Source of the DNA: Thermoanaerobaculia bacterium
GTDB taxonomy: Bacteria > Acidobacteriota > Thermoanaerobaculia > Multivoradales > J023
Assembly: GCA_036397835.1 (NCBI GenBank)
Contig: DASWIG010000349.1
Location: forward strand, 962-64,961
Length of the DNA stretch: 64,000 nt
Direction: 5' to 3'
Numbering within the stretch: the first letter of the stretch is position 1; each line of letters starts with the position of its first letter. Below the pieces are notes generated by a model. It was not told the DNA's origin. It made no database searches and saw only the letters and a list, made by a program, of their open reading frames with translations. The translations under genes were made by a program, and so were the position numbers. This document shows, piece after piece, positions 1,927 through 59,231 of the stretch.

Positions 1927-2049
1927 CCCGCGAGATACTACGCGAATCCCTCCGGCGGCTCCACTTGGGGGCCGGCTCAGGTATACTGTCGCCTCCGGTA
2001 CCCGTTGCCGGCTCCCAGAATCCGACCCCGCCAGGAGGGCGCACACAAG

Positions 2050-2931: not shown

Positions 2932-2939
2932 AGCCCCCC

Positions 2940-3461: not shown

Positions 3462-3514
3462 GGGGCCGCCCCCCGGCCCTGCTATCTTATGTGGAGATCC
3501 CGCCGGACAATGCC

Positions 3515-9562: not shown

Positions 9563-9565
9563 CGA

Positions 9566-11476: not shown

Positions 11477-11489
11477 CCTGGAGAACTTC

Positions 11490-16562: not shown

Positions 16563-18997
16563 CTATTCCTCCCGGATGATCTTCATCGGGTCGGTGCGGC
16601 TCGCCCGGAGGGTGGGGGGCAGGACTGCCAGGACGGCGACGCCGAGGAGGCCCAATAGCACGAAAGCGAAGGTCGCGGGATCGGACGCGCTGACCCCGAA
16701 GAGGAAGCCGCCCAGCAGAGCCCTGAGGGCCAGGAGGATGGCGATGCCGACCCCCATCCCCACGAGGGCCGGTCTCAGGCTGCGGACCATCATCAGCCGC
16801 AAGATCCGCGGACCGGTCGCACCCATGGCCATGCGGACGGCGACCTCGTGCCGTTGCTCGCGGACGCTGTTGCTCACCACTCCCCACAGATCGACCAGCG
16901 CCAGGATCAGGGCAACGCCGGCGAACAGGGTGAGGAGCAGGGTGCTGAAGCGCTCCTTGGAGATTTGCACTCGGAGGACCTCGTAGAGAGTCCTGGCGGC
17001 GGCGATGGGTTGCTCCGGGTCGATCCGGTGCAAGAGCTCCCGAAAAACGGGGAGCACCGAGAGCGCCGGGACGCCGGTGCGAATCAAGACGTTGACCTTG
17101 CGTTGGGGTACCTGCTGCAGCGGCAGGTAGAAGGTCGGATGAGGAGTCTTCCCCTCCGACGAGAGGGAATCGTCCACCACCCCGACGATGGTGAAGGAGG
17201 AGGGCCGCTCCGGTCCCCACACCCACTGGGCCGCCGGGGTGAAGAGGTGAGACCCGAGAGGATTTTGCTCCCCGAAATGCTTGCGCACCAGGGCCTGGTT
17301 GACGACGACCACCGCGGGCGCAGCGACGTGATCGCCGTGGTTGAAATCCCGTCCCGCGAGCACTTCCATGTCCAGGGATTCGAAGTAGCCGACGCTGACG
17401 GTGCGAAACAGCCCGCCCATTCTCTCTCCCAGCTTCGGCTCGACGCCTTCCAGTCTGAAGCCTGCCAACCAGTTGGCCTCCAGGGGATGATCGTAGGCCG
17501 CGACCGCGGCCGCCACTCCGGGAATGGCCCGGACCCCGTCCAGGAGCTGCTGGTAGAAATCGTTGAGCTGGGGCATTGCCGAGTAACTCTGTTCGGTGTG
17601 CGACAGCTCGACGATCAGCAATTCCCCACGCTCCAATCCCAGGTCCACCGCCTGCAAGCGTTTAAAGTTCTGGGCCAGGAGGGTGGAGCCGATCAAGAGC
17701 ACCACCACCAACATCATTTCGACGGCCACCAGGGCGCGATGGACACGGGCTCCCCGGCGGCCGCCGGCGACGGACCTGCCGGCGCGCAAAGCGCTCTCGA
17801 GGTCACGCCAGCGGATCTGACCGGCCGGGATCAACGAGGATATCAAGACGATCAACAGCGAGAGCAGAATCGTCACGCCCACGACCCGGTAGTCCATGGA
17901 CAACTGGTCCAGCCGCGGGAGCTCGCGGGGGGCCAGATGGGGAATCAGGCGCAGTCCCCAGATGCAGAGCAACAAACCCAGGAGGTTGCCGATCACGACG
18001 AGGACGGCACTCTCCACCAGGAACATCCTGACCACGTCGGCCTTCCCGGCACCGAAGGCGGAACGGATCGCCAGCTCCCTGTTCCGGGACATGACGCGCA
18101 CCAGCAAGAGGCTGACGACGTTGGCGCAGGCGACGATCACCAGCAAGGCCACGGCCACGGCCAACAAGTACAAGGGCCGACGGATCTTTCCCACCGCCTC
18201 CTCCGTCAGTGGGATCACCGCCGCCTTCTTCTTTTCGTTGGTCGCGGGGAAGTCCTGGGCCAGTTGGCCGGCGATCCTGTCCATCTCGATCCGCGCGCTT
18301 TCCAGGGTCTCTCCCGGGCCGAGCCGCGCCAGGACCCCGTGGATGCCGGACTGATCCGGCGGACCCGGGGGTCTGGGAATCCAGTAGAACGGCCGTTCCA
18401 AGTTGAAGGTCCAGACGCCGGAGGGCTCGGCGAGCTCCGGCAAGAGAAGCCGGGGCATGACCCCGACGACGGTGTAGGGTTGCTCGTCGAGGAGGAGAAC
18501 CTTTCCGATCGCCTCGCGATCAGCTTGCAGATGCGTGGACCACATGGGGTAATTGACCACGATGGTCCGCTCGGCCGCAGGCGTGAAGTCCTCCACCTGG
18601 AACGTTCGGCCGTAAAAGGCCGGGACCCCCAGCAAAGGAAAGAAATCTTCGGTCACCAGGGTGCCGACCACCTGTTCGGGCCGCTCCAGGGAGGTCAGAG
18701 CACCGGTGGAGAAGCTCACCATGGCCATCTTGTCGAAGACCTGGCTGCGCTCGTGCCACTGTCCGAAATTGAAGCCGGTGGTTCGCTGCTTGTCCCAGCC
18801 TTCCGAAAGTACCGAGTCCCAAATCGCCACCAGGCGTTCCGGGCTCGCGAGGTCCAGGGGCTTGAGCAGGATGGTGTCGATCAGGCTGAGGATCACGGCA
18901 GCGGCACCGATGGCGATGGCCAGGATGAGGATGACCAGCGAGCTGACTCGCCAATCGCGGCGCAGGGAACGAAGTGCCTGAGTGAGGTTTGAGCCCG

Positions 18998-19001
<4 letters not shown>
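16563..19001 (-). CDS. FtsX/MacB-like ABC transporter permease (two FtsX domains). No fused or adjacent ATPase.
   Basis: About 812 aa from ATG 19001 (MTGSNLTQALRSLRRDWRVSSLVILIL...). That ATG overlaps the TGA of the upstream megasynthase (ATGA). N-terminal TM, large periplasmic domain, FtsX-type 4-TM bundles. Confidence 0.75.
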
Positions 19002-35809
<16,808 letters not shown>

Positions 35810-35833: not shown

Positions 35834-38800
35834 TCAGAAGTCGTCCAGGTCGTCGGTGAACACGGGGATCGGCTCGGATCCGGAGCCGATCGGCAGACGG
35901 AGCTCGCGGATCGGCTTGTGGGGATGGTCGACCAGCTCCTCGAGCAAAGCCAGGAAGTTGAACGCCAGCCGCTCGATGGTGGCGCCGTGGAACAGCTCCC
36001 GCCGATAGAGGACGACTCCTTCCAGGTGGTCTTCGTGCGCGCTGAACTGGAACGTCAGGTCCTCGATGGCAAGGTCCAGGGCGGGCACCGTGACCCGCAG
36101 CTCCTGGTCCTCGGCGAGGGCCTGAGGAGGGAGGGCGTCCTGAAGGACGAAGAGGGCCTGGTACAGAGGCGGGCCGCCCCGATCCGTCCGCAGCCGTTCG
36201 ACCAGCCGTTCGTAGGGGACGTCCTGGTGGGCCCAGGCCTCGAGCACGGTTTCCCGCGTCCGGGCCAGGAGCTCCACGCCGGTGGGATTCCCGGACAGGT
36301 CGACCTTCAAGACCAGGGTATTGAGGAAGCAACCGATCAGGTGATCGAGCTCCACGTGGTTGCGCCCCGCCACCGGCGCCGCCAGGGCGACCTCGCAGTG
36401 GCCGGCGAAGCGGGACAGCAAGACGTGCAGGACCGCCAGCAGCGACATGAAGAGCGTCGTCCCCTGCTCGCGTCCCAGCTTCCGCAGCCCCGTGGTCAAG
36501 CCCTTCGGCACCCCGACCGGAACCCGTCCTCCCCGGTGGCTCGGCCTGGCGCGGCGCCGGCGATCCGCAGGCAGCTCCGGCACGGTCGGCGGGTCTCCCA
36601 AGGCCGCTTGCCAGAAAGCGATCTGAGCCTCCAGGATCGGCCCCTGCTCCAAGTAGTGACGCTGCCAGCGAGCGTACTCGGCGAATCGGACGGGCAGTGG
36701 CGGGAGATTCGGCGAGGCGCCGGCGGCCAGCGCGCGATAGAACGCTCCCAGCTCGTGGCCCAGCAGCCCCAGAGACCAACCGTCGAGGATCAGGTGGTGG
36801 GCGGTGAGCAGCAGGACGTGGTGGCGGGGCTCCAGGCGCACCAGCACCAGACGCAACAACGGCGCCCGGGCGATGTCGAAGCGGTGCTGCGCCTCGCGGG
36901 CCAGCGCGCGCAGGGTCTCCCCTTGCCGAACGTCCCCGGGCAGGCCGGTGAGGTCCACCAGCGGCAGCTTCACCGGCCACGGTGCGACGATCTCCAGACC
37001 GGGCTGGCCGTCGACCTCCGGCAACGCGGCCCGCAGGACCTCCTGGCGCCGGCACAGCTCCTCAATGGCCCGGGCGAGGAGCGCTGGCTCGAGCCCGCCT
37101 GAGAACTGCACCAAGACCGGCAGGTTGAAGGCCGGATTGCCGGGATCGAGGCGATCGAGGAACCACATCCGCTGCTGGGCGAAGGAGACCTGCAGCGGCT
37201 CCCGGAGGGGTTCCGTGAGGGAGCTCGGTGCCGGCCAGGCGACCTCCTGCCGTCGCTGCGTTGACAAGGCCCGGGCCAGGGAGGCCACCGTCGGGCTCTC
37301 GAAGAGCTGTCGCAGGGAGACCTCCCGGTCCAGAGTCCGGCGCAAGCGGGCGACCACCCGGGCGGCGAGGAGGGATTGTCCTCCCAGCTCGAAGAAGTTG
37401 TCGTGGATCCCGAACCGGCTCGGATCGGTCTCCAGGATCTCGGCCCAGGACCCCGCGATGAGCTCTTCCAACGGGGTGCGGGACAAGATGGGAGGCGCCG
37501 CGCCGCTTTTCTCCGCGGTCTCGGGCGGCCGCAGGGAGCGGCGATCGACCTTGCCGTTGGCGGTCAGCGGGAGGGCCGCCAGGGGGATCCACTGCTCCGG
37601 GACCATGTAGGCCGGCAACTCTTCTTCCACGGCGCGGCGAAGCACGGCCACCGGCGCCTCCGGAGGCACGAAGAACGCCGCCAGACGCCGCTGTCCCCGG
37701 GGGTCCCCGAGGGCCGTGACCACCGCCGCGCGGACGGCCGGCTGGCGGTTGAGCACGGTCTCGATCTCGCCCAGCTCAATGCGATGGCCCCGGATCTTGA
37801 CCTGGAAGTCCTCACGGCCGAGAAACTCGATTTCGCCATCGGGCAGGTAGCGGCCCCAATCGCCGGTCCGGTAGAGGCGTTCGCCGGTAACCGGGTGGGG
37901 GACGAAGGCGGCGGCGGTGGCCGCCGGCTGCCGCCAATAGCCTCGGGCGAGGCCGCCGCCGCCGATGTGGAGCTCGCCGGGGACCCAGACCGGCCGCCGG
38001 CGCCGGCACGAATCCAGGACCTGGAGGCTCTGGTTCGTCATCGCCCGCCCGTAGGGGATGCTCGCCCAGCCGGGGTCGACCTCGACGATCGGGTAAAGGA
38101 CGGACCAGATCGAGGCCTCGGTGGCCCCCCCCAGGCTGACGACCGCAGCGTGCTCCGTCCGGGCCCGGAGGCGTACCGGCAGATCTGTCGGGATCCAATC
38201 GCCGGAGAGCAGAATCAGGCGCAGGCTGGCCGGCAAGGGGGTGGGGCGGACTTCCAGGGAGTCCATGAGCATCACCATCAGGGACGGGGTGGAGTTCCAC
38301 AGGCTGATGCCCTCCGCCGCCAGGAGGTGCAGCCAGTGCTCCGGGTCGCGACGCGCCTCCTCCGCCGGGAAGATCACCCGGCCGCCCGCAGCCCACAGGC
38401 CGAAGAGATCGTAGACCGACAGGTCGAAGCCCAGGGACGACAGGGCCAAGATCCGGTCCTCAGGCCCGACGTCAAAGCGGCGTTGGAGGTCGAGGATGGT
38501 ATTAACCGCTCCCCGGTGATCGATCATCACGCCCTTGGGATGGCCGGTGGAACCGGAGGTGAAGATGGTGTAAGCCAGGTGATCCGGGCAGCCCGGATCG
38601 GGCACGGTTGCGGCCGGGCCGCCGGGAGCTTCCACCGGCATGGCCACGACGCCGTCCGGCCAAGCCAGGGAGCTCGCCAGGTGGGCCTCGGTGAGGGCGA
38701 TTCCCACCTCGCCGTGGCACAGCAGATGGTGGCGCCGGGCCTCGGGCAGTTGGGGATCCACGGGCAGGTAGGCCGCGCCTGCCTTGAGCACCGCCAGCAC

Positions 38801-41800
38801 CGCCACCGCCTGGCGCCAGCCCTTTTCCAGCACTACGGCCACCAGCCGATTCGGGGCCGCGCCCCGCAGCCGCAGCCGATGGGCGAGGTTGTCGGAGCAC
38901 CGATCGAGCTCCCCATAGCTGAGGTGCCGGCCCGCCGCCACCGCCGCCACCGCCTCGGGACGGCGGGCGGCCTGGGCCCGGAACAGCCCGTGCAAGGTCT
39001 GGTCCGCGCTCGCGGCTGCGGGCTCGGGTTGCGGGCTCGCAGTCGCGGGCAAGAGAGACGGCACCGGCTCGTTCCAGGCCCGGGGATCCTCGGCCAGCCG
39101 GCGGAGCCAGCCGCAATACCCGGCGAAGAGCTGGTCGAGCAGACCGGGCGGAAAGGCGTCGTCGACGGCATCCCAGTTGAACGCCAAGCGGTCGTCTCGT
39201 TCCCCCACCTGATGATCCAGCAAGACCTGAGGGGTCTGGCTGATGCTGTAGACCGACTCCCTCTCGATGCCCAGACCGTCCCATCCTCCCCATTCCTCGG
39301 TGCTTTGGTCGATACCCAGGAGACTGGTGAAGACCACCGGCATGATCACCGGCCCGGTCCGCCGCTGGCGGGCGGCCAGCTCCCTCAGCACCTGGACGCC
39401 GCTGAAGTAGCGGTGGTCCAGGTCTCCCCAGAGCTGGCTTTGCAGCCGCCTGGCCTGGGTTTCGAAGGTCCCCGGATCCCCCATCTTCACCTCCAGCAGG
39501 AGCGTGGAGGTGAAATCCCCCACCAGCTCGTTGACCTGCGGATGCATGGGCAGGCGATTGAAGAGGGTCAGGTTGAGGACGAAGTGAGGCTGCCGGCTCC
39601 ATTGGGCCAAGCATTGGGCGAAAACGGCGAGCAGCAGACCGGCGGAGGTGATGCCCGAGCTCTTGCACCGCTCTTTCAATGAGCGCCACAGGTCCGGTCC
39701 GAGCTCGCCGCTCCGGCGGACGAAGCGGGGCCGGCGCAGCTCGGTAAGGGAGGTGACGAGCGGCAGCTCGGGAGCGGAGGGTAAAGCGTCCAGGCGCCGC
39801 AGCCAGTAATCCCGGGAGCGCCGGTAGAGCTCGCCCTCGCGCATGGCCTCCTCGGCCAGGACGTAATCTCGGAAAGACAGCTCCAGGGGCGCGACGGCGG
39901 CGTCGGGGTCGGCGTAGAAGCGGCACAGGTCGCGAAACAGCACCAGGAAGCTCAGCGCGTCCCCCAGCAGCAGGTCGAAGCTGAAGTGGAGCCGGCAACG
40001 GTCTTCCGCGAGCCGGCTGGCCCGCAGCTCGAAGAGCGGCCACTGCTCGCACGGACGGACCTGATGGGACATCTGACCCCGGATCTCCGACAGAGCCCCC
40101 TCCGTCGCCGCCGCTCCCAGGCCGCGCAAGTCCGCCGTCCGGACGTCGTAGGGCGGCACGTCGGGCAAGATCCGCTGGCGGCCGTTCGGGTCGATCACCG
40201 CCCGCAGCATGGGCTGATGCCCGATGAGCTTGCGGAAGGCGGAGGTCAGCCGTTCCAGGTCCAGATTCCGAAAGTCCATCTCCTCGTAGCTGTGGGTCGC
40301 CACCCCACCCAGCTCCATGCCCTCCGACCGGCCGATCCAATAGGCCTGCTGGACGTCCGTCAGGGGGAAGCTCTCCTGCCACCGCTCCGGATCCGGGGTG
40401 ATGGCGGGGAGCTGGGCGACCTCTCCGCCCTCTTGCCGTGCCTCGGACACCAGCTCGGCGAGAGCGGCGACGTGGGCGGACCGGAAGAAATCCTGCAGGC
40501 CGACGTCGACATGGCGGGTCCGGCGGACCTGGGCCATCATCTCCGTGGCCAGGAGAGAATCTCCGCCGAGCTCGAAGAAGTCGTCGTAGACCCCCACCGG
40601 CTCGACGCCCATGAGCCGTTGCCAGAGGCCCACGAGGATCTCCTCCTCGGGATTGCGGGGTGCGGCGTAGGGGGTTTCCAGCTCCGGGCGGCCGTGCTCC
40701 AGCGGTGTGTCCATCCGCTCCGCGGCGCCGGCGGTCGTCGTGGTTTTCGTGCCCTCCGGAAAGCCGGAAATCAGGCCGAACCCGGCGGGGGGATCGATCC
40801 AGAAACGCCGTCGCTGAAAGGGGTAGACCGGCAGGGGCAGGCGCCGGCGGCGCTCTTCGCCGTAGTAGCCGTCCCAGTCGATCTCTACTCCGGCCAGCCA
40901 CAGCCGGCCCAGGGTCGTGAGGAGGAAAGCGTCGTCCGCTTCGTTCCGGTCCGCGGGAGGCAGGGAGGCAAGCGCCACCCGCTCGCCGCCGTAGCCCGGG
41001 TGGCGCCGTGCCAGGCGGGTCAGGGCGTGTCCCGGCCCCACTTCCAGGAGCACCTGGCTCGGCTCGTTCCAGAGCTCGCCGAGGGCGTCGCCGAAGCGCA
41101 CCGGCCGGCGCAGGTGCTCGAGCCAGTAGGCCGGTTCGACGGCGGCTTCGGGCTTCAGCAGCGTGCCGGTGAGGTTGGAGAAAACCAACTCCTGCGGCGG
41201 TTTCAGGGTCACCCGCTCCAGCGCGGCGGCAAAGGGCTCGGACACCGGCTCCATCATCGCCGAGTGGAAGGCGTGGGAGGTATGGAGGAGGCGGCAGGTC
41301 AACCCCTCCTCCTCCAGGCGTTCCCGCCAGGCAGCCACCGCCTTCCGGGACCCCGAGACCACGCAGCGATCCGGACCGTTGACGGCCGCCAGGTCCAGGG
41401 AAGCGCCGAGGCGCTCCCGGACCTGCTCCGCCGGCAGCCGGACGGAGAGCATGGCGCCCTCCTCCAGGCCCTGCATCAGGCGTCCCCGCAAGGCCACCAG
41501 CTCCAGGGCGTCCTCCAAGGAAAAAACTCCCGCCAGGCACGCCGCCACGTATTCCCCGAGGCTGTGGCCTAGCATCGCCTGGGGGCGCACGCCCCAGGAA
41601 AGCCACAACCGGGCGAGGGCGTACTCGAAGGCGAAGAGCGCCGGCTGGACCTCGGCGGTCGCCTCCAGGGGCCGGGCGCCGTCGCCCCGGGACGGGAACA
41701 GGATGGTCAGCAGGTCCGGCTCCAGGTGGGGTTTCAAGATCTCCGCACAGCGGTCCAGCCAGTGGCGGAAGGTGGCTTCCTCCCGGTAGAGGTCCTGGCC

Positions 41801-43437
41801 CATACCGGCGTACTGGCTTCCCTGGCCCGGAAAGAGGAAGGCCACCGGCCGGTCGGTCTCGCGAAAGCAGCGTTGGAGCAACCGCCGGGGATCCCGGTCC
41901 CGGAGCAGGCGCACCGCTTCCCGGCCCTCGCCGGCGAGGAGGGCGCGACGGTGTTGACACGGCTTGCGTCCCACCTGCAGGGTGAAGGCCACGTCCGCCA
42001 GGTCCGACTCCGGATGCTGCTCCAGGTGATCGGCCAGACGGTCCGTGGCCTCCTCCAGAGCCGCGCCGTCGCGGGCTGAGAGCAGGAGCAGCCGCCACCG
42101 CCGGGCCGCCGGATCGCACGGCACGGCGGGCGGGGCCTCCTCCAGCACCGCGTGGGCGTTGGTGCCCCCGATCCCGAAAGAGCTGACCCCGGCGCGCCGC
42201 GGGGTTCCATTCGTATCCCAGTCCCGGAGCCGGACGTTGACGACGAACGGCGTGCGGCGGAAGTCGATCTTCGGATTGGGGGCCTGGAAGTGAAGGCTGG
42301 GGGGGATCTGGCCGTGCTCCAGCATGAGGACGGTCTTGATCAACCCGGCGATTCCGGCGGCGGTGTCCAGGTGACCGATGTTGCTCTTGACCGAGCCCAG
42401 GGCGCAGCGGCCGGGCCCGGCCGCCGGTCCGAAGGCCTGGCGCAGGGCCTCGACTTCGACCGGATCCCCCAGCGCCGTGCCGGTGCCATGGGCTTCGACG
42501 AAAGTGATGCTTTCGGGCGGCACCTCGGCGAGCTCCAGGGCCGCCCGGATCACCCTTCGCTGTCCCTCGATGCTGGGGGCGGTATAACCCACCTTGTGCC
42601 GGCCGTCGTTGTTGATCGCCGTGCCCCGAATCACGGCGTGGATGGTGTCACCGGCCGCCACGGCGTCTTCCAGCCTCTTGAGGGCCACCACCCCCACCCC
42701 ATCTCCCGCCAGGGTGCCCCGGGCCTGGGCGTCGAAAGGCCGGCAGTGACCGTCTGGGGAATGGATCCCTCCCTCTACGTAGCGATAACCCCGCTGGCCG
42801 AGCAACCTCACCGTCACGGCTCCGGCCAGGGCCAGGTCGCTCTCGCCCGCCTGCAAACCCTGGCACGCCAGGTGGACCGCCACCAGCGAGGTGGAGCACG
42901 CGGTCTGTACCGTGACGCTGGGACCGGTCAGGTTGAGCTTGTAGGACGTACGGGTGGCCAGGTGATCCTTTTCGTTGGCCAGGAGCAGTGCGTGCATCCC
43001 CAGGTCCGCCACCAGGCAGGGATGCGCGCTGAGCTGCATGACATAGGTGTTGGTGGAGGCTCCGGCGTAGACCCCGATGGGGCCGGCGAAGCGTTCGGGG
43101 TCGACGCCCGCGTGCTCCAGGGCACTCCAGGCCGTTTCCAGGAAGAGGCGGTGCTGAGGATCGAGGATCTCGGCTTCCCGCGCCGTGAAACCGAAAAAGT
43201 CGGCGTCGAAGAACTCGACGCCGGCCAGGTAGCCGGTCGCCGGGACGTAGCTCGGATCGGCGAGGACCTCGCGGGGCACGTCCGCGAGCAGCTCGTCGAT
43301 GGAAAAACGGCGGATGGATTCCACCCCGGCGCAGAGATTGTGCCAGAAAGCATCGACGTCGTCAGCGCCCGGAAACCGCGCCGCCATCCCGACGACCGCC
43401 ACTTCCAGGCCACTTGCCTGTTTTCCCGGGTCCTTGC

Positions 43438-43441
<4 letters not shown>
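35834..43441 (-). CDS. Hybrid PKS-NRPS, 2535 aa. Domain order KS-AT-ACP-Cy-A-T-C.
   Basis: KS (TACSTS near 42890-42910; HGTGT; NIGH). AT GHSLGE...HAFHS (malonyl-type motif). ACP GGDSL. Heterocyclisation domain with FPLTDVQQAYWIGR (about 40327-40370) and DxxxxDxxS (FDLLLGDALS, about 39948-39980). A domain with DLY..W-type residues at Stachelhaus positions 235/236/239/331, compatible with Cys; A10 NGKVDR. PCP GGQSL. C-terminal C (HHLILDGWS). Start ATG overlaps the upstream stop (ATGA). Confidence 0.88.
39030..40370 (-). other. Heterocyclisation (Cy) domain (approximate)
   Basis: N-terminal Cy signature FPLTDVQQAYWIGR and the DxxxxD motif replacing HHxxxDG. Both were located in the DNA by reverse-complement matching. 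Confidence 0.7.
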
Positions 43442-49502
<6,061 letters not shown>

Positions 49503-49506
<4 letters not shown>

Positions 49507-51593
49507 CGAGCGTCCTCCGGCAAGACCACGTCTTGCTGGCGCACCGAGGCCTGCCGTTCCAGGAAGCTCTCGATCTCCCCCGGTTCGATGCGAAAACCGC
49601 GAATTTTGACTTGCTGATCGATCCGGCCCAGGAACTCGATCTCTCCATCTGCCGCCAATCGGGCCAGATCGCCGGTCCGGTAGAGGCGCTGGTCCGGCAC
49701 CTCTGCAAAGGGGTCGGGGATGAATCTGCTGGCGGTCTGTCGCGGACGTCCCAGGTAGCCACGGCCCACCTGGATTCCTCCGATGTGGAGATGGCCCGCC
49801 ACTCCTATGGGTAGAGCGTGGTCGAGAAGGTGAATGCGGGTATTGAACACCGGCCGCCCGATAGGGACGCTCATCTCGCCGCCGTCCGGAGCACAGGTAT
49901 GGGAGGTGACGTCGATGGCGGCCTCGGTGGGACCGTAGAGATTGTGGAGCTCGGTCTTGAGATGCCCAAATCGTTTGCAGAAAAGACGCTCGTGCTCCGG
50001 CGTCAGGGCCTCGCCGCTGGCGATGATCCGCCGCAGGTTGGTGATGTCGGAAAGGCCCGGCTCCCGGAGAAAGACCCCCAGCATCGACGGCACGAGGTGC
50101 AGGACCGTCACCCGCCGTTCCACGATGAGGGACGCCAGGTAGGCGCTGATCCGGTGTCCCTCCGGTCGGGCCATCACCAGCCGCGCCCCCACGAGAAGAG
50201 GCCAGAAGAGCTCCCACACCGAGACGTCGAAGCTGATCGAAGTCTTTTGCAGCACACGGTCGGCCGGGGTGAGAGGATATGTTTTCTGCATCCAGAAGAG
50301 TCGATTGCAGATCGCCCGATGAGAGTTCATGGTTCCCTTCGGGCGCCCCGTGGAGCCGGAGGTATAAATCATGTAGGCGAGCTGCTCCAGGGCCACAACG
50401 TCTCTCGCGTGTTGTCTGCCTCTGCGGGCGTGTGCCCTCGTCGTCCCACGGAGTACGAGTCTTCCGGTAACCGGATCGCCTTCGACCACCACGGCGGCGC
50501 CGGAATCCCTGAGCATGAAGGCCAATCGTTCCTGGGGATAGGATGGATCGAGAGGTACGTAGGCGCCGCCGGCCTGGAGAATCGCCAAAAGCCCCACCAG
50601 AAGCTCGGGCGACCGCTCCAACGAGATCGCGACCCGTATCTCCGGTCCCACCCCGAGGTCGCGCAATCGCCCTGCCAGGTGGCCCGCCCGAGCTTGGAGC
50701 TCCCCGTAGGTGACAAACTGCTCTCCGATCTCCAGTGCCACCGCGTCCGGAGTCCGTGCGGCCTGTGATTCGAAGAGCTCCGTCAAGCTCTGCGGGCCGG
50801 CAACAGGCACGTCCGTGTCGTTCCATTCCAGCGCCAGTTGATGTTTCTCTGCCGTGCTGATCAGGGAGAGCTCCCCCACTCGCCGTTGCGGATGAGCGCA
50901 AAGCTCCTCCAGCAGACCGGCGAAATGGACCTGCAGGCGGCGCAGCGTCACCCGGTCCCAAAGCTCCGTGCAGTATTCGAAAGCCCCATCCAAGGTGTCC
51001 CCCGACTCGGCCAGGGAAACCTTGAGATCGACGGGCACGGCGCTTGTTTCCGTTTCCAGAAAACGTATCACAAGATCCGGCAGATTGACGTCCTGGAAGG
51101 GAGCGTTGCCCCAGGCGAACGTCACCTGGAAGAGCGGCGAGCGCGATGGGTCCCTCTCCGGCTGCAGGGCGTCCACCAACTTCTCGAAAGGCAGATCCTG
51201 ATAGGCATGAGCCCCAAGGACTCGCTGATTGACCTGAGCGAGCAAGTCCAGGAAGCTCGGATCACGCTTCAGATTTCCGCGGAAAACCAGGTGGTTGACG
51301 AAAGGACCGATCAGGTCCTCGGTCTCCGCGTGAGGTCGATCGACGGGGGGCCTGCCTTTCCGGGCGAACGTCTTGCGAAGAACCTCGTGCCGTTGGACGA
51401 TTTTCCGGAAGCTCATCGCCAGCGCCGCACCGTCCGGGGCTCCGTCGAAACGCAGCACGAAGGGGGTGCTGTAGGCGGCGGTGCTTTGACCCGCCAGCGC
51501 GTCGAGAAACCAAAAGCGCTCCTGAGCCCAGGACAGGGGCAGCTCCCGGTCACGGCGGGCGGCGGCCGCCGAACCGCCGAACAGCTCGCTCAT
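49503..51593 (-). pseudogene. Degenerate C-A remnant gene (696 aa). C domain lacks the HHxxxDG core through an about-190-aa internal deletion. A domain is truncated after the A8 core (no A9/A10, no T). Near-duplicate of the C-A region of the downstream gene.
   Basis: About 90-93% nt identity between 49520-51560 and 44000-46650, compared by eye (for example 49941-50400 vs 44421-44880). Copy lacks the segment equivalent to about 45830-46400. ORF ends ...FLERQASVRQQDVVLPEDAR* whereas the intact copy continues ...VRQAVVTVRSYGTDDRRLVAYV.... ATGA-coupled to the upstream gene and GTGA-coupled to the downstream gene. Confidence 0.6.
49520..51560 (-). repeat. Direct repeat copy B (degenerate C-A coding segment)
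   Basis: Paralogous to 44000..46650 with an internal about-570-nt deletion and 3' truncation. Confidence 0.7.
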
Positions 51594-54500
51594 CGCACGT
51601 CCTCCGACAAGACGACGGGCCGCCGCCGTTGCCGGGCCTGCCGTTGGGCGGTCGCACGCTCCTGCATGCCGTCGAGCTCCGCCTGCTCGGCCTCGGCCTC
51701 GGTCTCGGCCTCGGCGAGGTAGCGTGCCAGGGAGCCGATCGTCGGGTAGGTGAAGAGGTCGACCTGCAACAGGTCGTCCCGGCCGAGCTTTTTTGCCAGT
51801 TCCTCGTGGGCCTGGACCAGCGCCAGGGAATGGCCGCCATGATCGAAGAAGTTGTCGTCAACGCCGAGTTTGTCGACCCGCAGCACGTCCTTCCAGACCT
51901 CGGCGATGGTGCGCTCCAGGCGGTTGCGCGGCGCCACGTACTCGCCCGAGACATCCGAGCGCCGGCTCTCCGGCCGGGGCAGGGCGCGCAGGTCGAGCGC
52001 GCCGCCGGCGGTGCGCGGCAGAAGACCCACCGGCAGCACCGCCTCCGGGCACAGGAAAGGCGGCAGCCGCTGGCGCAGGAATCCCGTGAGCTGGGCGGGT
52101 GAGACCGCGTCGGCGCACACCACGTAGGCCACCAGGCGCTTGTGCCCCGGATCGTCCTCGCGCACGGCGACCTCGACGTCGTCAACCTGCGGATGCGAGC
52201 GCAAGACCGCTTCCACCTCGCCCGGGTCGACGCGGTGCCCTTTGACCAACACCTGCCGGTCGCGGCGGCCGAGCGGCTCCAGGATGCCGTCGTGGCGGTA
52301 GCGGGCCAGGTCGCCGGTGCGGTGCAGCCGGCCGCCCGGCCGGCTGCCGAAGGGATCGGGAGCGAAGCTCGCGGCGGTCTCGCGAGCGTCTCCCATCACG
52401 GCGCGGGCCAGCCCCTCGCCGCCGAGGAGGAGCTCGCCGGTGGCGCCCACCGGGACCGGCTTCAGGGCGTCGTCGAGCAGGTAGACCTGGCGGCCGGCAA
52501 GCGGCCGCACCGTGGCGGTACCGTCGCGGCGGCGCGTCTCGACGCGCGAAAAGGCCGTCGCCTCGGTGCGCCCGTAGACGATGCAGACACGCTCGAGGGT
52601 GGAGCTCGCGAAGAGCTTCCCGAGCAGGGCTTCGGACGGCCGGTCATAGGCGAAGCTCACCGTCCGCAGCGCCGGCGGGAGCGCCTCCAGCCGGAGCAGC
52701 TCGGCCATGGCCGAAGGCGTGGCCGTCACCAACCGGACGTCCGCCGCGGCGGCCAGCCGCGAGGGGCGCAGGACGTCGCCGGCCAGCAGCACCCGGCCGC
52801 CGCGGGCGAGCGGCGCGAACAGCTCGAAGATCGAGACGTCGAGGCTGACCGGCGTCGACGCCAGGCAGCCGCCGAGATCCTCGTCGTCGAAGAGCTCCTG
52901 GGCCGCGGCGAGCCAGGTGGCGAGGGCCCGGTGCGGGATCTCGATCCCCCGGCGCCCGCTCGGTCCGGAAGTGTACAGGACCCAGGCCAACTGCTCGCCC
53001 CGCGGCGGCGGCAGCGGCGCCGCCGGCTCGAAGGGCTCGCGGTCGGCGCGCACGACCCGGCAGCCGGACAGCGTCGGCAGTTGCTCGTGGAGCGGCGCCT
53101 CGCTCACCAGCCAGCGGGCGCCGCTGGCGTCGAGGGCTTCGAGCGGCCGCTCGGTGCTCTCGCCCAGGTCGACCGGCACGCAGGCACCGCCCGCCTTGAG
53201 CACCGCCAGCATGGCGACCACGAGGCGCGGAGTCCGCTCGAGGAAGATCCCCACCCGGTCCTCGGCGGCCAGGCCCAGGCGGCGGAGATGGCCGGCCAGA
53301 CGCGACGAGCGTTCGTCGAGGTCGCCGTAGGTCAGGCTCTCGCCCTCCCACCGCACCGCTTCGCGTCCGGGATGGCGGCGCGCCGCCGCGGCGATCACCT
53401 CCGGCACCGTCCGCGCGGCCGGCGCCGCGACCGCGACGCCGCTCCATTCGCCCACCGACTGCCAGCGCTGCGCCGGGGAGAGCGGCTCGAGATCCCCCAA
53501 CCGGGCGTCCGGCTGGCGGGCCATGGCGTCGAGCAGGCGGCCGAGGTGCTCCAGCCGCTGCCGGACGGCGCAGTCGCTGAAGCGCCCGGTGTCGTAGATC
53601 ATCTTGAGCCGCAGCCCGGGCTTCTCGTAGGCGTGGACCAATAGCGGATAGCCGGGCTGGCGGCGGATCTGCACCGTCATGCTCCGGTATCGCGGGCCCA
53701 GCCAGGGCAGCGACGCGCTCAACGGGTAGCGCTCGAATTGCACCAGACTGTCGAAGAGCGGTTGGCCGGAGGCGATGTCGCTCCACTCCTGGACCTTGGA
53801 GAGCGCCGTGTGCTCGTGGGGGCGCAGTGCCGTCCAGAAGCTGCGCAGCTCTTCCAGGTAGACGCTCAAGGGCTTGCTCGGCTCGGCTATGGCCCGCACG
53901 GCGAGGGTGTTGACCATCGGACCGACGATCGTGTCGCCGCCGGGGAGCGACGCGCGGCACGACTTGACGGCCCCGAAGGCGACGTCGTGACGCCCGCTGT
54001 AGCGCGCCAGCAGCAAGCCCCAGGCGGCCTGGGTCACCGTGTTGAGGCTCAGGCCCTCGCGCTGGCACCTGGCGGCGAGGGCGGCGCCGGTCTCCGGTGA
54101 CAGGAGGAGGTCCATTTCCCGGTGGCCGCGGCTCGGGTCCGCGGCCGAGCTCTCGAGGCCGTCCGCGGCAGGAGTCGGGCTTTCGAAGCCGGCGAAGGCG
54201 GCGCGCCAGAAGGCCTCGTCTCGCGACGCGTCCTGAGCCGCGACGTGCTCGACGTAGTCGCGGAACGGCAGCGACTGCCGGGGCTCGAAGGCGCTGCCCG
54301 CGGCGATCGCCGCGTAGCGGCCGAAGAGGTCGGTGGTGGCGATCGGCACGGAGCGCCCGTCGACCACCGCGTGATGGACGGTGATCAGGATCCGAGACCC
54401 GGACGCGCCGCCGTGGAAGAGCGCCGCGCGGATCAGCGGCGGCCTGCCGAGCACGAAGCCGCGGCGCCGGTCCTCGCGCAGATATCCCTCCAGGCGGATC

Positions 54501-54799
54501 TCCTGCTCCTCGGTGGGCAGCTCGCTCCAATCCTGCGCGGTGAACGGCACCTGCACCGCCGGGGCCACCCACTGCCGGGCCTCGGCGCCGTGCCAGTCAA
54601 AGGCCGTGCGCAGCGCCGGGTGACGCTGGACCATCCAGTCCAGGCAGTCCCGCAGCAGAGGAGCGTCGACTGCCTCGGGAAGGGCGAAGACGAGCTGCCA
54701 GACGTCGACGCCGGAGCCCGGGCGGTTCAGGCTCTGAACGAGCATTCCCTCCTGGATCGGGGACAGCGGATAGCTCTCTTGCGTCATTCGCAACCTCAC
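51590..54799 (-). CDS. NRPS initiation module Cs-A-T (about 1065 aa). N-terminal starter-type condensation domain. A domain with non-canonical core motifs, no A10 lysine. PCP and C-terminal docking-like tail.
   Basis: C: HHAVVDGRS. A: A2 LKAGGACVPVD; A3 YTSGPSGRRGIEI (vs YTSGSTGxPKG); A8 GRRDRQVLVKGHRV; A10 region LPRTAGGALDLRAL (vs NGKVDR in all other A domains of the cluster). PCP: FFDHGGHSLAL. Likely true start ATG at 54787 (MTQESYPLSPIQEGM), 12 nt after the TAA of the upstream gene; the ORF-track start is GTG at 54799. Confidence 0.85.
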   Translation of the reverse strand: MRLRMTQESYPLSPIQEGMLVQSLNRPGSGVDVWQLVFALPEAVDAPLLRDCLDWMVQRHPALRTAFDWHGAEARQWVAPAVQVPFTAQDWSELPTEEQEIRLEGYLREDRRRGFVLGRPPLIRAALFHGGASGSRILITVHHAVVDGRSVPIATTDLFGRYAAIAAGSAFEPRQSLPFRDYVEHVAAQDASRDEAFWRAAFAGFESPTPAADGLESSAADPSRGHREMDLLLSPETGAALAARCQREGLSLNTVTQAAWGLLLARYSGRHDVAFGAVKSCRASLPGGDTIVGPMVNTLAVRAIAEPSKPLSVYLEELRSFWTALRPHEHTALSKVQEWSDIASGQPLFDSLVQFERYPLSASLPWLGPRYRSMTVQIRRQPGYPLLVHAYEKPGLRLKMIYDTGRFSDCAVRQRLEHLGRLLDAMARQPDARLGDLEPLSPAQRWQSVGEWSGVAVAAPAARTVPEVIAAAARRHPGREAVRWEGESLTYGDLDERSSRLAGHLRRLGLAAEDRVGIFLERTPRLVVAMLAVLKAGGACVPVDLGESTERPLEALDASGARWLVSEAPLHEQLPTLSGCRVVRADREPFEPAAPLPPPRGEQLAWVLYTSGPSGRRGIEIPHRALATWLAAAQELFDDEDLGGCLASTPVSLDVSIFELFAPLARGGRVLLAGDVLRPSRLAAAADVRLVTATPSAMAELLRLEALPPALRTVSFAYDRPSEALLGKLFASSTLERVCIVYGRTEATAFSRVETRRRDGTATVRPLAGRQVYLLDDALKPVPVGATGELLLGGEGLARAVMGDARETAASFAPDPFGSRPGGRLHRTGDLARYRHDGILEPLGRRDRQVLVKGHRVDPGEVEAVLRSHPQVDDVEVAVREDDPGHKRLVAYVVCADAVSPAQLTGFLRQRLPPFLCPEAVLPVGLLPRTAGGALDLRALPRPESRRSDVSGEYVAPRNRLERTIAEVWKDVLRVDKLGVDDNFFDHGGHSLALVQAHEELAKKLGRDDLLQVDLFTYPTIGSLARYLAEAETEAEAEQAELDGMQERATAQRQARQRRRPVVLSEDVR

Positions 54800-57370
54800 T
54801 TACGCGGGTGGGTCGGGTGGCGGCGCCTCGGCGGCCGTCAGGTCGACGGCGACGATCCTCAGCTCGCTCGTGTAGGTCTGGCCTTCGGCGTCCGGCAACC
54901 AGGTCTGGTCGGGAGCCGGCAGCATCTCGCTGGCGGAGACCCGCGCCGCCTCGCCGTGCGCTTCGCGGGCGCGGCGGATCTCCTTGGCGAAGATGGCGAC
55001 GTAGAGCGGATTGTCGAAGTCGACGAACATGGGCTTGATCTCGCTCGACGTGCGGGTGAACACGAAGCGCGGCATCCCGTGGCCCGCGGCCCAGCGCCGG
55101 ACTTTGACGAAGAGCTCGAAGGCGTCTTTCTCGTCGGCGAAGGTCAGCTCTGCGCCGGCGAAGCGCCAGGTCTCGCGGGCCATGACCAGGCGGTCGACGG
55201 TGACCCGCGGGGTATGGTCCCAGGCCGGCAGGAGGCGGGTTTCGAGGGCGAGCAGGAGCGAGAGGATCAGCGCGAAGCACTCGACGGGCTCGACCTCCAG
55301 GCGGCCATCGTGGGTGCGCACCCTCAGGCGGCCGTCGCGTCGCTCGAGCTGCAGCTCGGAGAGCTTCAGGACCCGCGCTCCCTCGAGGCCCGCGGCGTCG
55401 GCCGAGGTGACGAGCAGGTAGTCCCGAGGGCTCACCAGGCTCATGTTCGTCCGCGTGGTGGCGCGCGGCACGTTCTTCGGAGTCACCGACAGCACGCGGG
55501 GGACGGTGACGTCGCGCGCCACCGCCCGCACGAGCTCCTCGGGGCGGGGGTGCTGCTCGACGAAGACCGAGGAGTTGAGGGTGTTGGTGGCGACGTGGAG
55601 CTCGCCCATCACGATCTGGAAGTCGCCGCCGGCCAGCGCTTCGACGCTGGGCGAGGAGATCATGAGGTCAGGACTGTGGTGGCAGGCACCCGGCCAGCCG
55701 ATGCCTGAAGTGCGGAAGGCGGCGCGGACCCGGGGGCCCAGCTTCTCGCTCGAGAGCTGCACGCGCCGGCTGCCGGGCCGGATGCCGAGGAGCTCGGCCC
55801 AGAGCTGCTGATAGCTCTCGAGCACCCGGTCGAGGGGTCGGCCGCGGGCGCCGAAGATCAGGTGCTGGGCCTGGAACCAGAAATCGACCATCTCGACCGT
55901 CGACGAGGCGGACCTTTCGGCCAGCTCGAGATGGACCTCCTCGAAAGCCCGCCGGTATTCCTCGGCCACCCGGCAGCTCAGCCAGCGGCTGCTGTCGAGG
56001 ACCAGCTCCAGGGGGGGCGCCAGGGTGGCGAGCAGCTTCTTGCCGAGCCGGACGTCGACGTGGCGCCGGCAATCCTCGTAGACGAGGGTGCGGGCGGCGT
56101 AGGTCCGGCCGGCGGCACGCGTCGGCTCCTGGCCGGTCAGGCGGGTGAAACACTCCTCGAGGCTCTCGAAGGACTCGTCGAGGCGTTGTGGATCGCCGGC
56201 CGCTTCGCCGACCCTGCGCCGGGCGGCATCGAGCTCGTCGAGGTCGGCCAGGGCGCCGTCGCGCAGCTCGAGGTCCAGAATCGCCTCGAGCTGGGCCCTC
56301 AGGGTCCGCTCGGGATGGGCCTCGAGGGGAATCTCGAGGCCCCATGAGAGCACGCCTTCGTCCCGCAGGCGGTCGAAGAGGTCGAGCACCTCCTGCGGAT
56401 CCTCGACGTCGCTCGCGGGGTCCGCCGCCAATTGCTCGGCGATCGTCCGGGCGGGACGGCGGCCGTCGCAGGCGGCCAGCGCCGCCGCTTCCGTCGCGCT
56501 CAGCGGCCGCGGCGACTCGAACGGCCGGCGCACGCTCGTGGCGCCGAGCTTAACGAACGGCAGGATCCGCGGCGGAAGCCAACTGCGCAGCGCCGGATCC
56601 GCCGTCATCCGCTCGGCGAGCGCGTCCACGGTCCAGCCTTCGAAACAGACCTTGCGATCGCAGAGCATCTCGGGGTGGACGCGGACCCGGACCACCTCGT
56701 CCTCCTCGCTCCACCAGGCCCAGCCGACAGGACCGAAGAAGCCGATCGTGTCGTTCTTGGCGCCGTAGCGTTGGAGATAACGCGCCACGAGCTCCTCGCG
56801 GCGGCGATAGGCGGAGCTGCCGAAGTCCTCGCGGCCGGAGGCCAGCAAACGCTCGACGCCGGTGTGGAAGCCGCGCCGGTTCTGCCACAGGACGGCTTCC
56901 TGGAAGCGCGCAGTGGCGGCGATCCGGCGCAGGCTTTGGGTGACCGCGGATCCGGCGCGCTCGAAGGCCTCTCGGAGCTCGCGCAGCGCCGAGTCCCGCT
57001 GCTCCAGCGCCCGCTGATAGGCCTCGACGGCCGAACGGGTGGCGGCGTTGAGCGGCGCGAGGTCTTCGTGGCAGGGGCTCGCGGCCTCGAGACGCCGGCG
57101 CACCCGGCGCAGGGCTCGGCGCTCGGCGTCCGAGCTGCGCCGGATGTCGCCGCGCAGGGCGATGGAGGCCTGGTTGCGGAGCCATTCCAACTCCTCCTCG
57201 CAGAGCAACAAGCGCTGCGCCGCCGCGCCGCAGTCGCCGACCTCGGGGCCGGTCACGGCGGCGACGGGAAATCCCGCGGCGCGCAATGCCGTGCATCGCC
57301 AAAAGGCCCACCGCCCCGCTCCGGGCAGAGACACCAAGTGCCCAACGTCCCCCAAGGCCCAGTCCTCCAC
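54800..57370 (-). CDS. LanB-like protein (lanthipeptide dehydratase N-terminal glutamylation-domain family; PEARL-like standalone architecture without SpaB_C elimination domain), 856 aa
   Basis: Motif ARYLQRYGAKNDTIGFFGPVGWAWW resembles the conserved LanB/Lant_dehydr_N signature (RY..R...TPFGLF[AS]G). The about-850-aa size matches split-LanB/PEARL proteins. No C-terminal eliminase domain, and no small precursor ORF nearby. Immediately followed, co-directionally, by the NRPS genes. Confidence 0.55.
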   Translation of the reverse strand: MEDWALGDVGHLVSLPGAGRWAFWRCTALRAAGFPVAAVTGPEVGDCGAAAQRLLLCEEELEWLRNQASIALRGDIRRSSDAERRALRRVRRRLEAASPCHEDLAPLNAATRSAVEAYQRALEQRDSALRELREAFERAGSAVTQSLRRIAATARFQEAVLWQNRRGFHTGVERLLASGREDFGSSAYRRREELVARYLQRYGAKNDTIGFFGPVGWAWWSEEDEVVRVRVHPEMLCDRKVCFEGWTVDALAERMTADPALRSWLPPRILPFVKLGATSVRRPFESPRPLSATEAAALAACDGRRPARTIAEQLAADPASDVEDPQEVLDLFDRLRDEGVLSWGLEIPLEAHPERTLRAQLEAILDLELRDGALADLDELDAARRRVGEAAGDPQRLDESFESLEECFTRLTGQEPTRAAGRTYAARTLVYEDCRRHVDVRLGKKLLATLAPPLELVLDSSRWLSCRVAEEYRRAFEEVHLELAERSASSTVEMVDFWFQAQHLIFGARGRPLDRVLESYQQLWAELLGIRPGSRRVQLSSEKLGPRVRAAFRTSGIGWPGACHHSPDLMISSPSVEALAGGDFQIVMGELHVATNTLNSSVFVEQHPRPEELVRAVARDVTVPRVLSVTPKNVPRATTRTNMSLVSPRDYLLVTSADAAGLEGARVLKLSELQLERRDGRLRVRTHDGRLEVEPVECFALILSLLLALETRLLPAWDHTPRVTVDRLVMARETWRFAGAELTFADEKDAFELFVKVRRWAAGHGMPRFVFTRTSSEIKPMFVDFDNPLYVAIFAKEIRRAREAHGEAARVSASEMLPAPDQTWLPDAEGQTYTSELRIVAVDLTAAEAPPPDPPA

Positions 57371-57668: not shown

Positions 57669-59231
57669 ATGGCAAAGGTGTCCCGTGAGGTTCTCTTCGA
57701 AGATCTGGATCGGCGGCTTGCCGCGTCAGCAGCTGGCGGCGGGCCGGAGAGGGTCGCCAAGCAAAATGCGCTGGGCAAGCTGACGGCTCGCCAGCGAGTC
57801 GAGGCGCTGCTCGATCCCGGCTCGTTCTTCGAGCTCGACGCGCTGGTGACCCATCAGTGCAAGGACTTCGGCATGGACCGGAAAGTGGTTCCGGGAGACG
57901 GAGTGATCACCGGGCACGGGACGATCGACGGCCGGCGGGTCCACCTCTTCTCGCAGGATTGCACGGTCTTCGGCGGCTCCTTGTCCAGTGCCGGAGCCCG
58001 GAAGATCTGCAAGGTCATCGACCTTGCAGCCGACACCGGGACTCCGCTCATCGGCCTCAACGACGGCGGCGGCGCCCGCATTCAAGAGGGTGTCGCCTCG
58101 CTCGACGGCTATGCGGCGCTGGCCCGGCGGATCGCCCATGCCTCCGGCTGGATTCCGCAGATCTCCGCCATTCTGGGCGCCTGCGCGGGCGGCGCCTCCT
58201 ACACCCCGGCCGGGACGGACTTCCTCTTCATGGTCGAGAAGACGAGCTTCATGTTCGTCACCGGACCCGAGGTGATCCGGCAGGCGACGAGAGAGGAGGT
58301 GACGCAGGAGGCCCTGGGCGGGGCCATGACGCATTTCTCCAAGACCGGCGTCGCTCACGTCAAGACGCCGGACGACGGCACCTGCCTGCAGGAGATCCGA
58401 CGCCTGCTGTCGTATCTGCCCGACAACAGCGGCCAGAAACCGCCCCGACTCGCGGCACCGGCCGAGAACGGGCATGCGGGCGAGGAGCTTGACGAGATCA
58501 TCCCCGAAGATCCGAGCAGCACCTACGACGTCAAGGCGCTGATCAACGGGATCGTCGACGAGGACAGCTTTTTCGAGCTGCAGGCCGCCTGGGCGAAGAA
58601 CATCGTCATCGGCTTGTCGCGGATCGGCGGCTTTGCCGTCGGCATCGTCGCCAACCAGCCCAAGCACCTCGCCGGCGCGCTCGACATCAACGCTTCGCTC
58701 AAAGCGGCGCGGTTCATCCGCTTTTGCGACGCCTTCGAGATCCCGGTGTTCACGATCCTCGACACTCCCGGCTACCTCCCCGGAACCCACCAGGAATACA
58801 ACGGGATCATCCGTCACGGCGCCAAGCTGGGTTTCGCCTACGCCGAAGCGACGACTCCGACCATCACCCTCGTCACTCGCAAGGCCTATGGTGGGTCCTA
58901 TGGCGCGATGGGAAGCAAGCAGATCGGGTGCGACGTCAATCTCGCCTATCCCAGCGCCGAGATCGCGGTCATGGCGCCGGAGAGCTCAGCACGAATCCTT
59001 TACCGCAACGAGCTGACGGCGGCGGGCGAAAACGCCGCGGAGCTCTACAAGCAGCGGGTCGAGGAGCTGCGCTCGATACTCTCGAATCCCTACGTCGCCG
59101 CGGCGCGCGGCGAGATCGACGCGGTGATCAAGCCGCGAGAAACCCGTGGCCACGTCCTGCGAAGCCTCGAGCAACTACGCACCAAGAACGTCGTGAGACG
59201 CTGGAAAAAACACTCGAACATCCCGCTGTGA
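57669..59231 (+). CDS. acyl-CoA carboxylase carboxyltransferase beta subunit (propionyl-/acetyl-CoA carboxylase beta chain family)
   Basis: 520 aa. Carboxyltransferase N/C domains (GGSLSSAGARKICKVIDLA..., GYLPGTHQEYNGIIRHGAKL, AYGGSYGAMG). Confidence 0.85.
   Translation: MAKVSREVLFEDLDRRLAASAAGGGPERVAKQNALGKLTARQRVEALLDPGSFFELDALVTHQCKDFGMDRKVVPGDGVITGHGTIDGRRVHLFSQDCTVFGGSLSSAGARKICKVIDLAADTGTPLIGLNDGGGARIQEGVASLDGYAALARRIAHASGWIPQISAILGACAGGASYTPAGTDFLFMVEKTSFMFVTGPEVIRQATREEVTQEALGGAMTHFSKTGVAHVKTPDDGTCLQEIRRLLSYLPDNSGQKPPRLAAPAENGHAGEELDEIIPEDPSSTYDVKALINGIVDEDSFFELQAAWAKNIVIGLSRIGGFAVGIVANQPKHLAGALDINASLKAARFIRFCDAFEIPVFTILDTPGYLPGTHQEYNGIIRHGAKLGFAYAEATTPTITLVTRKAYGGSYGAMGSKQIGCDVNLAYPSAEIAVMAPESSARILYRNELTAAGENAAELYKQRVEELRSILSNPYVAAARGEIDAVIKPRETRGHVLRSLEQLRTKNVVRRWKKHSNIPL

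Follow-up and report, generated by a model that had tools for sequence, protein, structure and literature searches.

A PEARL-type relative of the lantibiotic dehydratases encoded at the head of an NRPS–PKS operon in a Thermoanaerobaculia bacterium

In around 2,000 gene clusters for nonribosomal peptide synthetases (NRPS) and polyketide synthases (PKS) there are genes whose products bear the annotation lantibiotic dehydratase; most of these proteins stand alone, and some are fused to a carrier (T) or thioesterase (TE) domain (PMC11212132). SnaE, a member of the sna (threopeptin) NRPS–PKS cluster of Stackebrandtia nassauensis, is an amide-forming PEARL that adds Thr to the carboxylate freed when a ureido-forming condensation (C) domain reverses the chain, and addition of Thr to the NRPS–PKS product requires it (Yu & van der Donk, ACS Cent Sci 2024; PMC11212132). 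Here we analyse a gene of the same family in 64,000 nucleotides of DNA from Thermoanaerobaculia bacterium (assembly GCA_036397835.1, contig DASWIG010000349.1, positions 962 to 64,961 of the forward strand), hereafter the window. The gene heads an operon for an NRPS–PKS assembly line and encodes a PEARL-type protein which, as judged from sequence, probably works for that line as an amide ligase dependent on ATP and aminoacyl-tRNA.

The window protein resembles SnaE in being a stand-alone enzyme with PF04738 as its only family, in belonging to an NRPS–PKS cluster without a precursor peptide, and in having a transporter encoded in its cluster. TglB (3-thiaglutamate), AmmB2/AmmB3 (ammosamide) and BhaB1/5/7 likewise have the LanB glutamylation fold without an eliminase and carry the same Q-R...K-N-[DE]-T and E-x-R residues. 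These enzymes, however, extend the C terminus of an adjacently encoded ribosomal scaffold peptide, whereas no scaffold peptide was found near the window gene, which is paired in the genome with a thiotemplate assembly line. In the class I dehydratases (LanB), Glu-tRNA is used to esterify Ser/Thr, and a PF14028 eliminase and a leader peptide are needed, neither of which was found in the window.

Domain, fold and signature residues of the PEARL-like protein

Read from a GTG at 57370 the gene encodes 856 amino acids; the public gene call begins at a TTG at 57355, preceded 9 nt upstream by GGAGGA, and gives 851. The protein matches PF04738 (Lant_dehydr_N) over positions 3–648 of the 649-position Pfam profile (E = 6.5e-36), its sole significant Pfam family. 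NCBIfam holds no family for it, and a single-sequence PDB search with it gave no match. An AlphaFold2 model built on 36 homologues (mean pLDDT 90.1, pTM 0.89) had the TbtB glutamylation domain as its top Foldseek match in the PDB (E = 3e-26, TM 0.64–0.69); the further matches were MibB, GodF, MadB and NisB, with no other significant ones and with E-values over the five from 3e-26 to 8e-18. TbtB, too, lacks a fused elimination domain, but all five share only 12–19% identity with the window protein and have RxxxR/K-S/T-T/S-P-F/Y in place of QRxxxKNDT. PF14028, the SpaB_C elimination domain, was matched neither by the protein nor by any substantial open reading frame (ORF) of the window. A preliminary description of this DNA, made from the letters, had proposed a LanB-fold enzyme without an elimination domain, and the domain search and structure comparison bear this out.

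We compared the diagnostic blocks of the protein with the alignment in Fig. S12 of PMC11212132. There, LanB proteins carry R-x-x-x-R/K-S/T-T/S-P-F/Y-G-L-F, and PEARLs and SnaE carry Q-R-x-x-x-K-N-[DE]-T-x-x-F-F together with a C-terminal E-[LI]-R; the R/K pair of the PEARL block is the proposed binder of the tRNA 5'-phosphate, and the E-[LI]-R residues are required for ATP-dependent phosphorylation of the substrate carboxylate (PMC11212132). The window protein has the blocks YLQRYGAKNDTIGFF and YTSELRIVAV, and SnaE has YAQRYFTKNDTIGFF and YTSELRFVAV, the likeness between the two being one of these blocks only. The stretches QRYGAKNDTIGFF and YTSELR also align with TglB, BhaB and AmmB2. The preliminary description had called a LanB glutamylation signature here. 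The motif is indeed LanB-related, but it does not follow R-x-x-x-R; it reads Q-R-Y-G-A-K-N-D-T-I-G-F-F, which is the PEARL variant.

Q195, R196, K200, N201, T203, E831 and R833 are invariant among the 36 homologues. Across 159 full-length family members from related loci, E-x-R is present in every one and QRxxxKN[DE]T in 149, and the LanB motif occurs in 0 of the 159. The PEARL-type signature and the missing eliminase therefore place the window protein with the PEARLs: it is a genuine stand-alone relative of the lantibiotic dehydratases, of the PEARL type. It fits that family in its PF04738 fold, the absence of PF14028 and the PEARL-specific residues, and its predicted activity is amide formation.

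These residues also bear on an option raised in the preliminary description, namely that the enzyme would use Glu-tRNA to glutamylate Ser/Thr on a carrier-bound or released intermediate, with elimination to dehydroalanine or dehydrobutyrine to follow. The fold is that of NisB and TbtB, a fused eliminase is missing from split LanBs such as TbtB as well, and two or three Ser-type adenylation (A) domain codes are predicted in the line, all of which would suit such a reaction. We nevertheless consider dehydration highly improbable, because the signature is of the PEARL/SnaE type (QRxxxKNDTIGFF, YTSELR), with QRxxxKNDT replacing the LanB RxxxR-S/T-T-P-F and the PEARL-specific Arg of E-x-R present, because no family member examined has the LanB motif, and because no PF14028 partner is encoded in the 64 kb.

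The model also contains a winged-helix insert that resembles an RRE (Table 1). The family profile of the window protein weakly matches PqqD (5sxy; E = 0.027), and Pfam PqqD gave no match in the protein itself, so that the resemblance is only suggestive. 

Operon context, family associations and a candidate role

The PEARL gene stops with TAA at 54800–54802 and is followed by the spacer gtgaggttgcga of 12 nt and the ATG of the C-A-T gene g2 at 54787. Read directly, this junction upholds the earlier claim that the gene lies 12 nt upstream of the first NRPS gene, on the same strand and in operon linkage with it. The operon comprises seven genes, PEARL, g2–g6 and a permease (Table 1), whose domain layout was drawn from Pfam and from home-made domain HMMs. 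ATGA/GTGA overlaps had been noted at all downstream junctions; they are found at four of the five (g2/g3, g3/g4, g4/g5 and g6/permease), and g5 and g6 are separated by a 24-nt spacer. The assembly line totals seven NRPS and three PKS modules and ends in a TE.

The predicted A-domain codes are Ser, Cys, unknown, Ser, Gly and Cys-like, and none of those predicted for the operon is Asp/Glu-like. The window holds five HHxxxDG motifs (VHHAVVDG, IHHIVSDG, AHHLILDG, LHHTITDG and FHHLVVDG), and the ureido signature EHHxxHDG is absent from all six of its reading frames. No credible small ORF or precursor peptide was seen in the 298-bp region upstream of the PEARL gene or in the flanks, in line with the preliminary description, and scanning the upstream region for promoters and terminators gave no match. 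The window contains no tRNA gene.

The family is large. Hundreds of homologues share 40–55% identity with the window protein, all with PF04738 as their only family. At least 569 family matches lie in species-representative genomes of Acidobacteriota, Chloroflexota, Actinomycetota, cyanobacteria and myxobacteria, and at E ≤ 1e-30 there are ~1,960 family clusters (50% identity). The arrangement had been presented as unusual; with ~2,000 NRPS/PKS clusters already documented, SnaE characterised (PMC11212132) and at least 569 species-level genomes, it is not unusual as a class. The family also co-occurs with NRPS/PKS genes in its related loci: NRPS/PKS domains are present in 121 of 159 non-redundant related loci (76%), and within 500 nt on the same strand in 58. 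In these loci the next domain downstream of the PEARL is C in 21, A in 14, T in 5 and a ketosynthase (KS) in 1, and the domain before it is T in 24, C in 8 and TE in 4. The type of C domain found in g2 (HHxxxDGRS, N-terminal 'YPLSPxQxGML') was ruled out as a PEARL-specific partner, since it also starts NRPS proteins that have no PEARL in their vicinity (L168, L169, L170; L numbers are our designations of loci).

Ten actinobacterial loci carry an in-frame C-A(Val)-T-PEARL fusion, with linkers of 18–60 residues and one of 216. A conserved layout, C-A(Val code)-T-PEARL / C-A-T / ~2.3 kb / C-A-T / C, is seen in Micromonospora, Salinispora, Saccharothrix and relatives (L034, L052, L056, L060, L064, L066, L070, L072, L078). 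In these loci the fused carrier is predicted to bear Val, which offers no side-chain carboxylate as acceptor.

These associations weigh on a further alternative, an independent pathway for a peptide that the ribosome makes and that is modified after translation (RiPP), in which the PEARL would act on a scaffold peptide encoded elsewhere and the NRPS genes would be mere neighbours. PEARLs characterised before SnaE all use scaffold peptides, and the RRE-like insert is retained here. The 12-nt coupling to g2, the common operon, the absence of a small ORF nearby, the NRPS/PKS domains in 76% of related loci and the in-frame fusions to T domains all argue the other way, and we give this alternative very little probability. 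The preliminary description had named a precursor or scaffold peptide plus an eliminase nearby as the sign of such a pathway; neither was found in the window.

We therefore return to the amide ligase. By analogy with TglB, the BhaB enzymes and SnaE, the PEARL would phosphorylate a free carboxylate with ATP, couple the acyl-phosphate to the alpha-amine of an aminoacyl-tRNA, and the tRNA would then be released. The outcome would be one extra amino acid, joined by an amide bond beyond the reach of the thiotemplate machinery, and the enzyme would serve the co-transcribed NRPS–PKS line, not a ribosomal peptide. We infer both the dependence on ATP and tRNA and the identity of the acceptor. In SnaE the carboxylate comes from the C domain with EHHxxHDG; as this signature is missing from the window, the same logic cannot supply the acceptor here. 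EHHxxHDG is also missing from 77 of 79 related genome loci. With neither a ureido-forming C domain nor an Asp/Glu-type A-domain code in the line, the simplest candidate is the C-terminal carboxylate freed by the TE; the chief alternative is that an intermediate waiting on module 1 provides the carboxylate. The TE-released acceptor agrees with canonical PEARL chemistry, and also with relatives, in which PEARL genes often follow a TE or lie beside exporters (ADOP/MacB permeases) or M28 peptidases.

A disabled adenylation domain downstream of the PEARL

The window differs from the sna cluster in two further respects. Its PEARL gene stands first in the operon and is followed directly by a C-A-T module whose A domain is dead, and the distance of the signature motif from the N terminus is ~65 residues greater than in SnaE. 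That the A domain of module 1 lacks the catalytic A10 lysine was already recognised in the preliminary description and is confirmed (LPRTAGGALDL); its P-loop is degenerate as well.

Both defects are confined to g2 and two A domains of one other locus, L082, among ~200 A domains in ~160 PEARL loci. P-loops as weak as this were found in 4 of 142 A domains from the genome and look-up loci, namely that of g2, which was fetched twice, and the two of L082; the metagenome loci add one more, in L089, a second assembly of L082. The A10 Lys is present in 119 of 124 aligned A subdomains; it is missing from g2 and from the L082 copies, of which one recurs in L083, a second assembly, and the only other exception is a K-to-R change. 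A scan of metagenome loci gave no independent dead-A example, L088 being the same organism as the window and L089 being L082.

The two PEARLs of L082 are the second and third closest to that of the window (51% and 49% identity). The locus reads PEARL / C-A*-T / PEARL / C-A*-T / KS-AT-KR-ACP / C-A..., where A* marks the dead A domains, which have also lost Asp235, and its PKS module is intact. Between the two cassettes identity is 83% for C, 78% for A* and 67% for PEARL, with dN/dS of 0.17, 0.33 and 0.28, respectively. From the value of 0.33 we conclude that the dead A domain of L082 is still constrained. The relatives next in identity (L084, L086; proteins P0005, P0009; 45–46%) have ...A-T / PEARL / stand-alone T / KS-AT-KR with no A domain between, and in L071, L154 and L158, too, the domain right after the PEARL is a T whose GGxS is intact. 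Counted in PEARL loci only, 22 of 184 peptidyl carrier domains lack an A domain in cis. The closest relative (L085; P0002, 55% identity), however, has after its PEARL a C-A module with a canonical P-loop, and PEARL-adjacent C-A-T modules mostly have intact A domains. The dead-A trait of the window and L082 lineages may go back to a single evolutionary event. The pairing of a PEARL with a conserved dead A domain, and with A-less carriers in relatives, appears to be new in that it is not described in the literature searched.

It could be argued from this pattern that the PEARL is a surrogate for the dead A domain of module 1, so that the aminoacyl group would be handed over to the phosphopantetheine thiol on T of g2, either directly or, in a variant, after the aminoacyl-tRNA has been N-acylated by an ATP-activated carboxylic acid. 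Module 1 would then be fed from tRNA independently of the ribosome, and its unit would enter thiotemplate synthesis. The carrier thiol, and not water, would resolve the tRNA ester, and the dead but conserved A domain would be a scaffold only. The arrangement of g2 is what such a scheme would lead one to expect, with both A-domain motifs lost and yet C (HHAVVDG) and T (GGHSL) intact. So too are the confinement of dead A domains to positions directly downstream of near-relative PEARLs, the duplicated PEARL and C-A*-T cassette of L082 with its constrained A* domains, the carriers that follow a PEARL or lack a cis A domain, and the existence of true T-PEARL fusions. Against this, a single origin of the trait would make the statistics weak, the closest relative has a canonical P-loop after its PEARL, most PEARL-adjacent modules have intact A domains, and T1 might be loaded in trans by another A domain. 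Moreover, a carboxylate is what the conserved phosphorylation residues would act on, and mere transfer of an aminoacyl group requires none; thiol capture of a PEARL intermediate is without precedent. On balance we think this feeding of module 1 from tRNA possible but unlikely.

The same degeneration might instead mean that decay has set in at the front end of the line and that the PEARL is a relic with no current role. Besides the dead A domain of g2, g3 is truncated: the core of its C domain, including HHxxxDG, is deleted, its A subdomain ends after 37 of 95 positions, and it has no T domain. An assembly artefact was ruled out, since g3 and the part of g4 from which it derives share no more than 88% identity. 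The ATGA/GTGA junctions around the truncated g3 are kept. In g4 the acyltransferase (AT) domain reads GHGLG, with Gly in the place of the active-site Ser, and has lost ~66 residues through an internal deletion, so the g4 acyl carrier protein (ACP) would have to be loaded in trans; all three KS domains of the operon keep their active-site Cys. Yet the PEARL ORF is intact, keeps all the residues invariant in the family and gives a model with a pLDDT of 90, and a protein 100% identical to it is found in three JGI metagenome contigs from three samples. Moreover, L082 shares the dead-A arrangement, and there purifying selection acts on A* and the PKS module has remained intact. We therefore regard a relic as very unlikely.

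The amide ligase thus remains the explanation that we prefer. Fold, signature residues, the lack of an eliminase, the 12-nt gap to g2, the in-frame fusions of relatives, the NRPS association, the SnaE precedent and the TE all speak for it. Several points weigh against it. The sequences nearest to the PEARL are no more than 55% identical to it, and no acceptor carboxylate can be named, EHHxxHDG being absent from the window and no acidic A-domain code being predicted. The TE might cyclise the product instead of hydrolysing it. That the gene opens the operon and precedes a module whose A domain is dead suits an on-line role at module 1 better than one after release, and the dead-A and A-less carriers of relatives point the same way. 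Lastly, with the front of the line partly degenerate (dead A domain, truncated g3, dead AT in g4), the cluster may not be fully functional.

Neighbouring genes and implications

The features of the window are collected in Table 1. In L082 a carboxyltransferase homologue with 63% identity occupies the same divergent position (1460-3025, minus strand) as that next to the window PEARL; the carboxyltransferase may be a member of the cluster, or may supply extender units. Two aminoacyl-tRNA synthetase genes, argS and cysS, lie in the window. The product of argS is a bona fide arginyl-tRNA synthetase and was ruled out as a dedicated partner of the PEARL: it is found beside no other family member, and a convergent gene lies between the two. 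It is probably a housekeeping gene.

Table 1. Positions of the PEARL gene, the operon and flanking genes in the 64-kb window
Feature	Position	Strand	Remarks
PEARL-like gene (LanB glutamylation fold)	54800..57370	(-)	PF04738 full length; fold match TbtB, MibB, NisB
Signature QRYGAKNDTIGFF	56735..56773	(-)	residues 195-207 of 851-aa form; R/K pair; K-N-D-T where LanB has S-T-P-F
Winged-helix, RRE-like insert	56342..56578	(-)	residues ~260-338; strands and three helices in model
C-terminal signature YTSELRIVAV	54845..54874	(-)	Glu and Arg match TglB residues for ATP-dependent phosphorylation
12-nt spacer	54788..54799	(-)	GAGG ribosome-binding motif between PEARL stop and g2 start
g2, first NRPS module, C-A*-T	51590..54787	(-)	1065 aa
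g2 C domain	53459-54769	(-)	HHAVVDGRS
g2 A* core	52403-53383	(-)	domain HMM
g2 A3 P-loop	52946..52972	(-)	degenerate, TSGPSGR-RG (consensus TSGSTGxPKG)
g2 A subdomain	51986-52261	(-)	domain HMM
g2 A10 motif LPRTAGGALDL	51989..52021	(-)	consensus LPxTxxGKxDR; catalytic Lys to Ala
g2 T domain	51716-51916	(-)	GGHSL intact
g3, C-A remnant	49503..51593	(-)	partial g4 duplicate; 88% nucleotide identity to 44005-45818
g4, KS-AT0-ACP-C-A(Ser)-T	43438..49506	(-)	AT with GHGLG and internal deletion
g5, KS-AT-ACP-Cy-A(Cys)-T-C	35834..43441	(-)	domain HMMs
g6, A-T-C-A(Ser)-T-C-A(Gly)-T-KS-AT-KR-ACP-C-A(Cys-like)-T-TE	18998..35809	(-)	domain HMMs
ADOP/MacB-type duplicated permease	16563..19001	(-)	last operon gene; ATGA overlap with g6
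Carboxyltransferase (PccB/MmdA-like)	57669..59231	(+)	Pfam, NCBIfam; divergent from PEARL gene
argS, arginyl-tRNA synthetase	59279-61159	(-)	1.9 kb from PEARL
M48 peptidase, AsnB-like amidotransferase, TauD-like dioxygenase operon	8141-12482	(+)	tightly packed, flanking cluster
cysS	3458-4933	(+)	aminoacyl-tRNA synthetase gene

In related loci, TauD-like, OCD-like or M28 peptidase genes follow the PEARL (L014, L044, L172, L087), and an ADOP/MacB-type permease lies immediately upstream of it in L085, L171, L172, L014, L018, L026 and L103. Membership of the window permease in the ADOP family speaks for an acidobacterial origin of the DNA. The tailoring and peptidase genes, together with the M48–AsnB–TauD operon that flanks the window cluster, hint that the added residue may undergo tailoring or release. 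Two or three tandem PEARL paralogues occur in L007, L097, L173 and other acidobacterial loci, which suggests successive additions of different amino acids.

The family to which the window protein belongs is thus represented in ~2,000 clusters and has one characterised member. Because ureido chain reversal is lacking in the window and in nearly all relatives examined, the mechanism of SnaE cannot explain most of it. The locus and its relatives provide a testable lead, in that a PEARL is paired with carriers that have no working adenylation partner and is in some relatives fused to a carrier domain. If it is true that PEARLs feed or extend carrier-bound intermediates from aminoacyl-tRNA, this would be a new link from the substrates of translation to thiotemplate synthesis, and such clusters would have to be predicted and engineered differently. 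If the PEARL only caps a released product, it would still show, for Acidobacteria-type clusters, how an amide can form outside the thiotemplate machinery.

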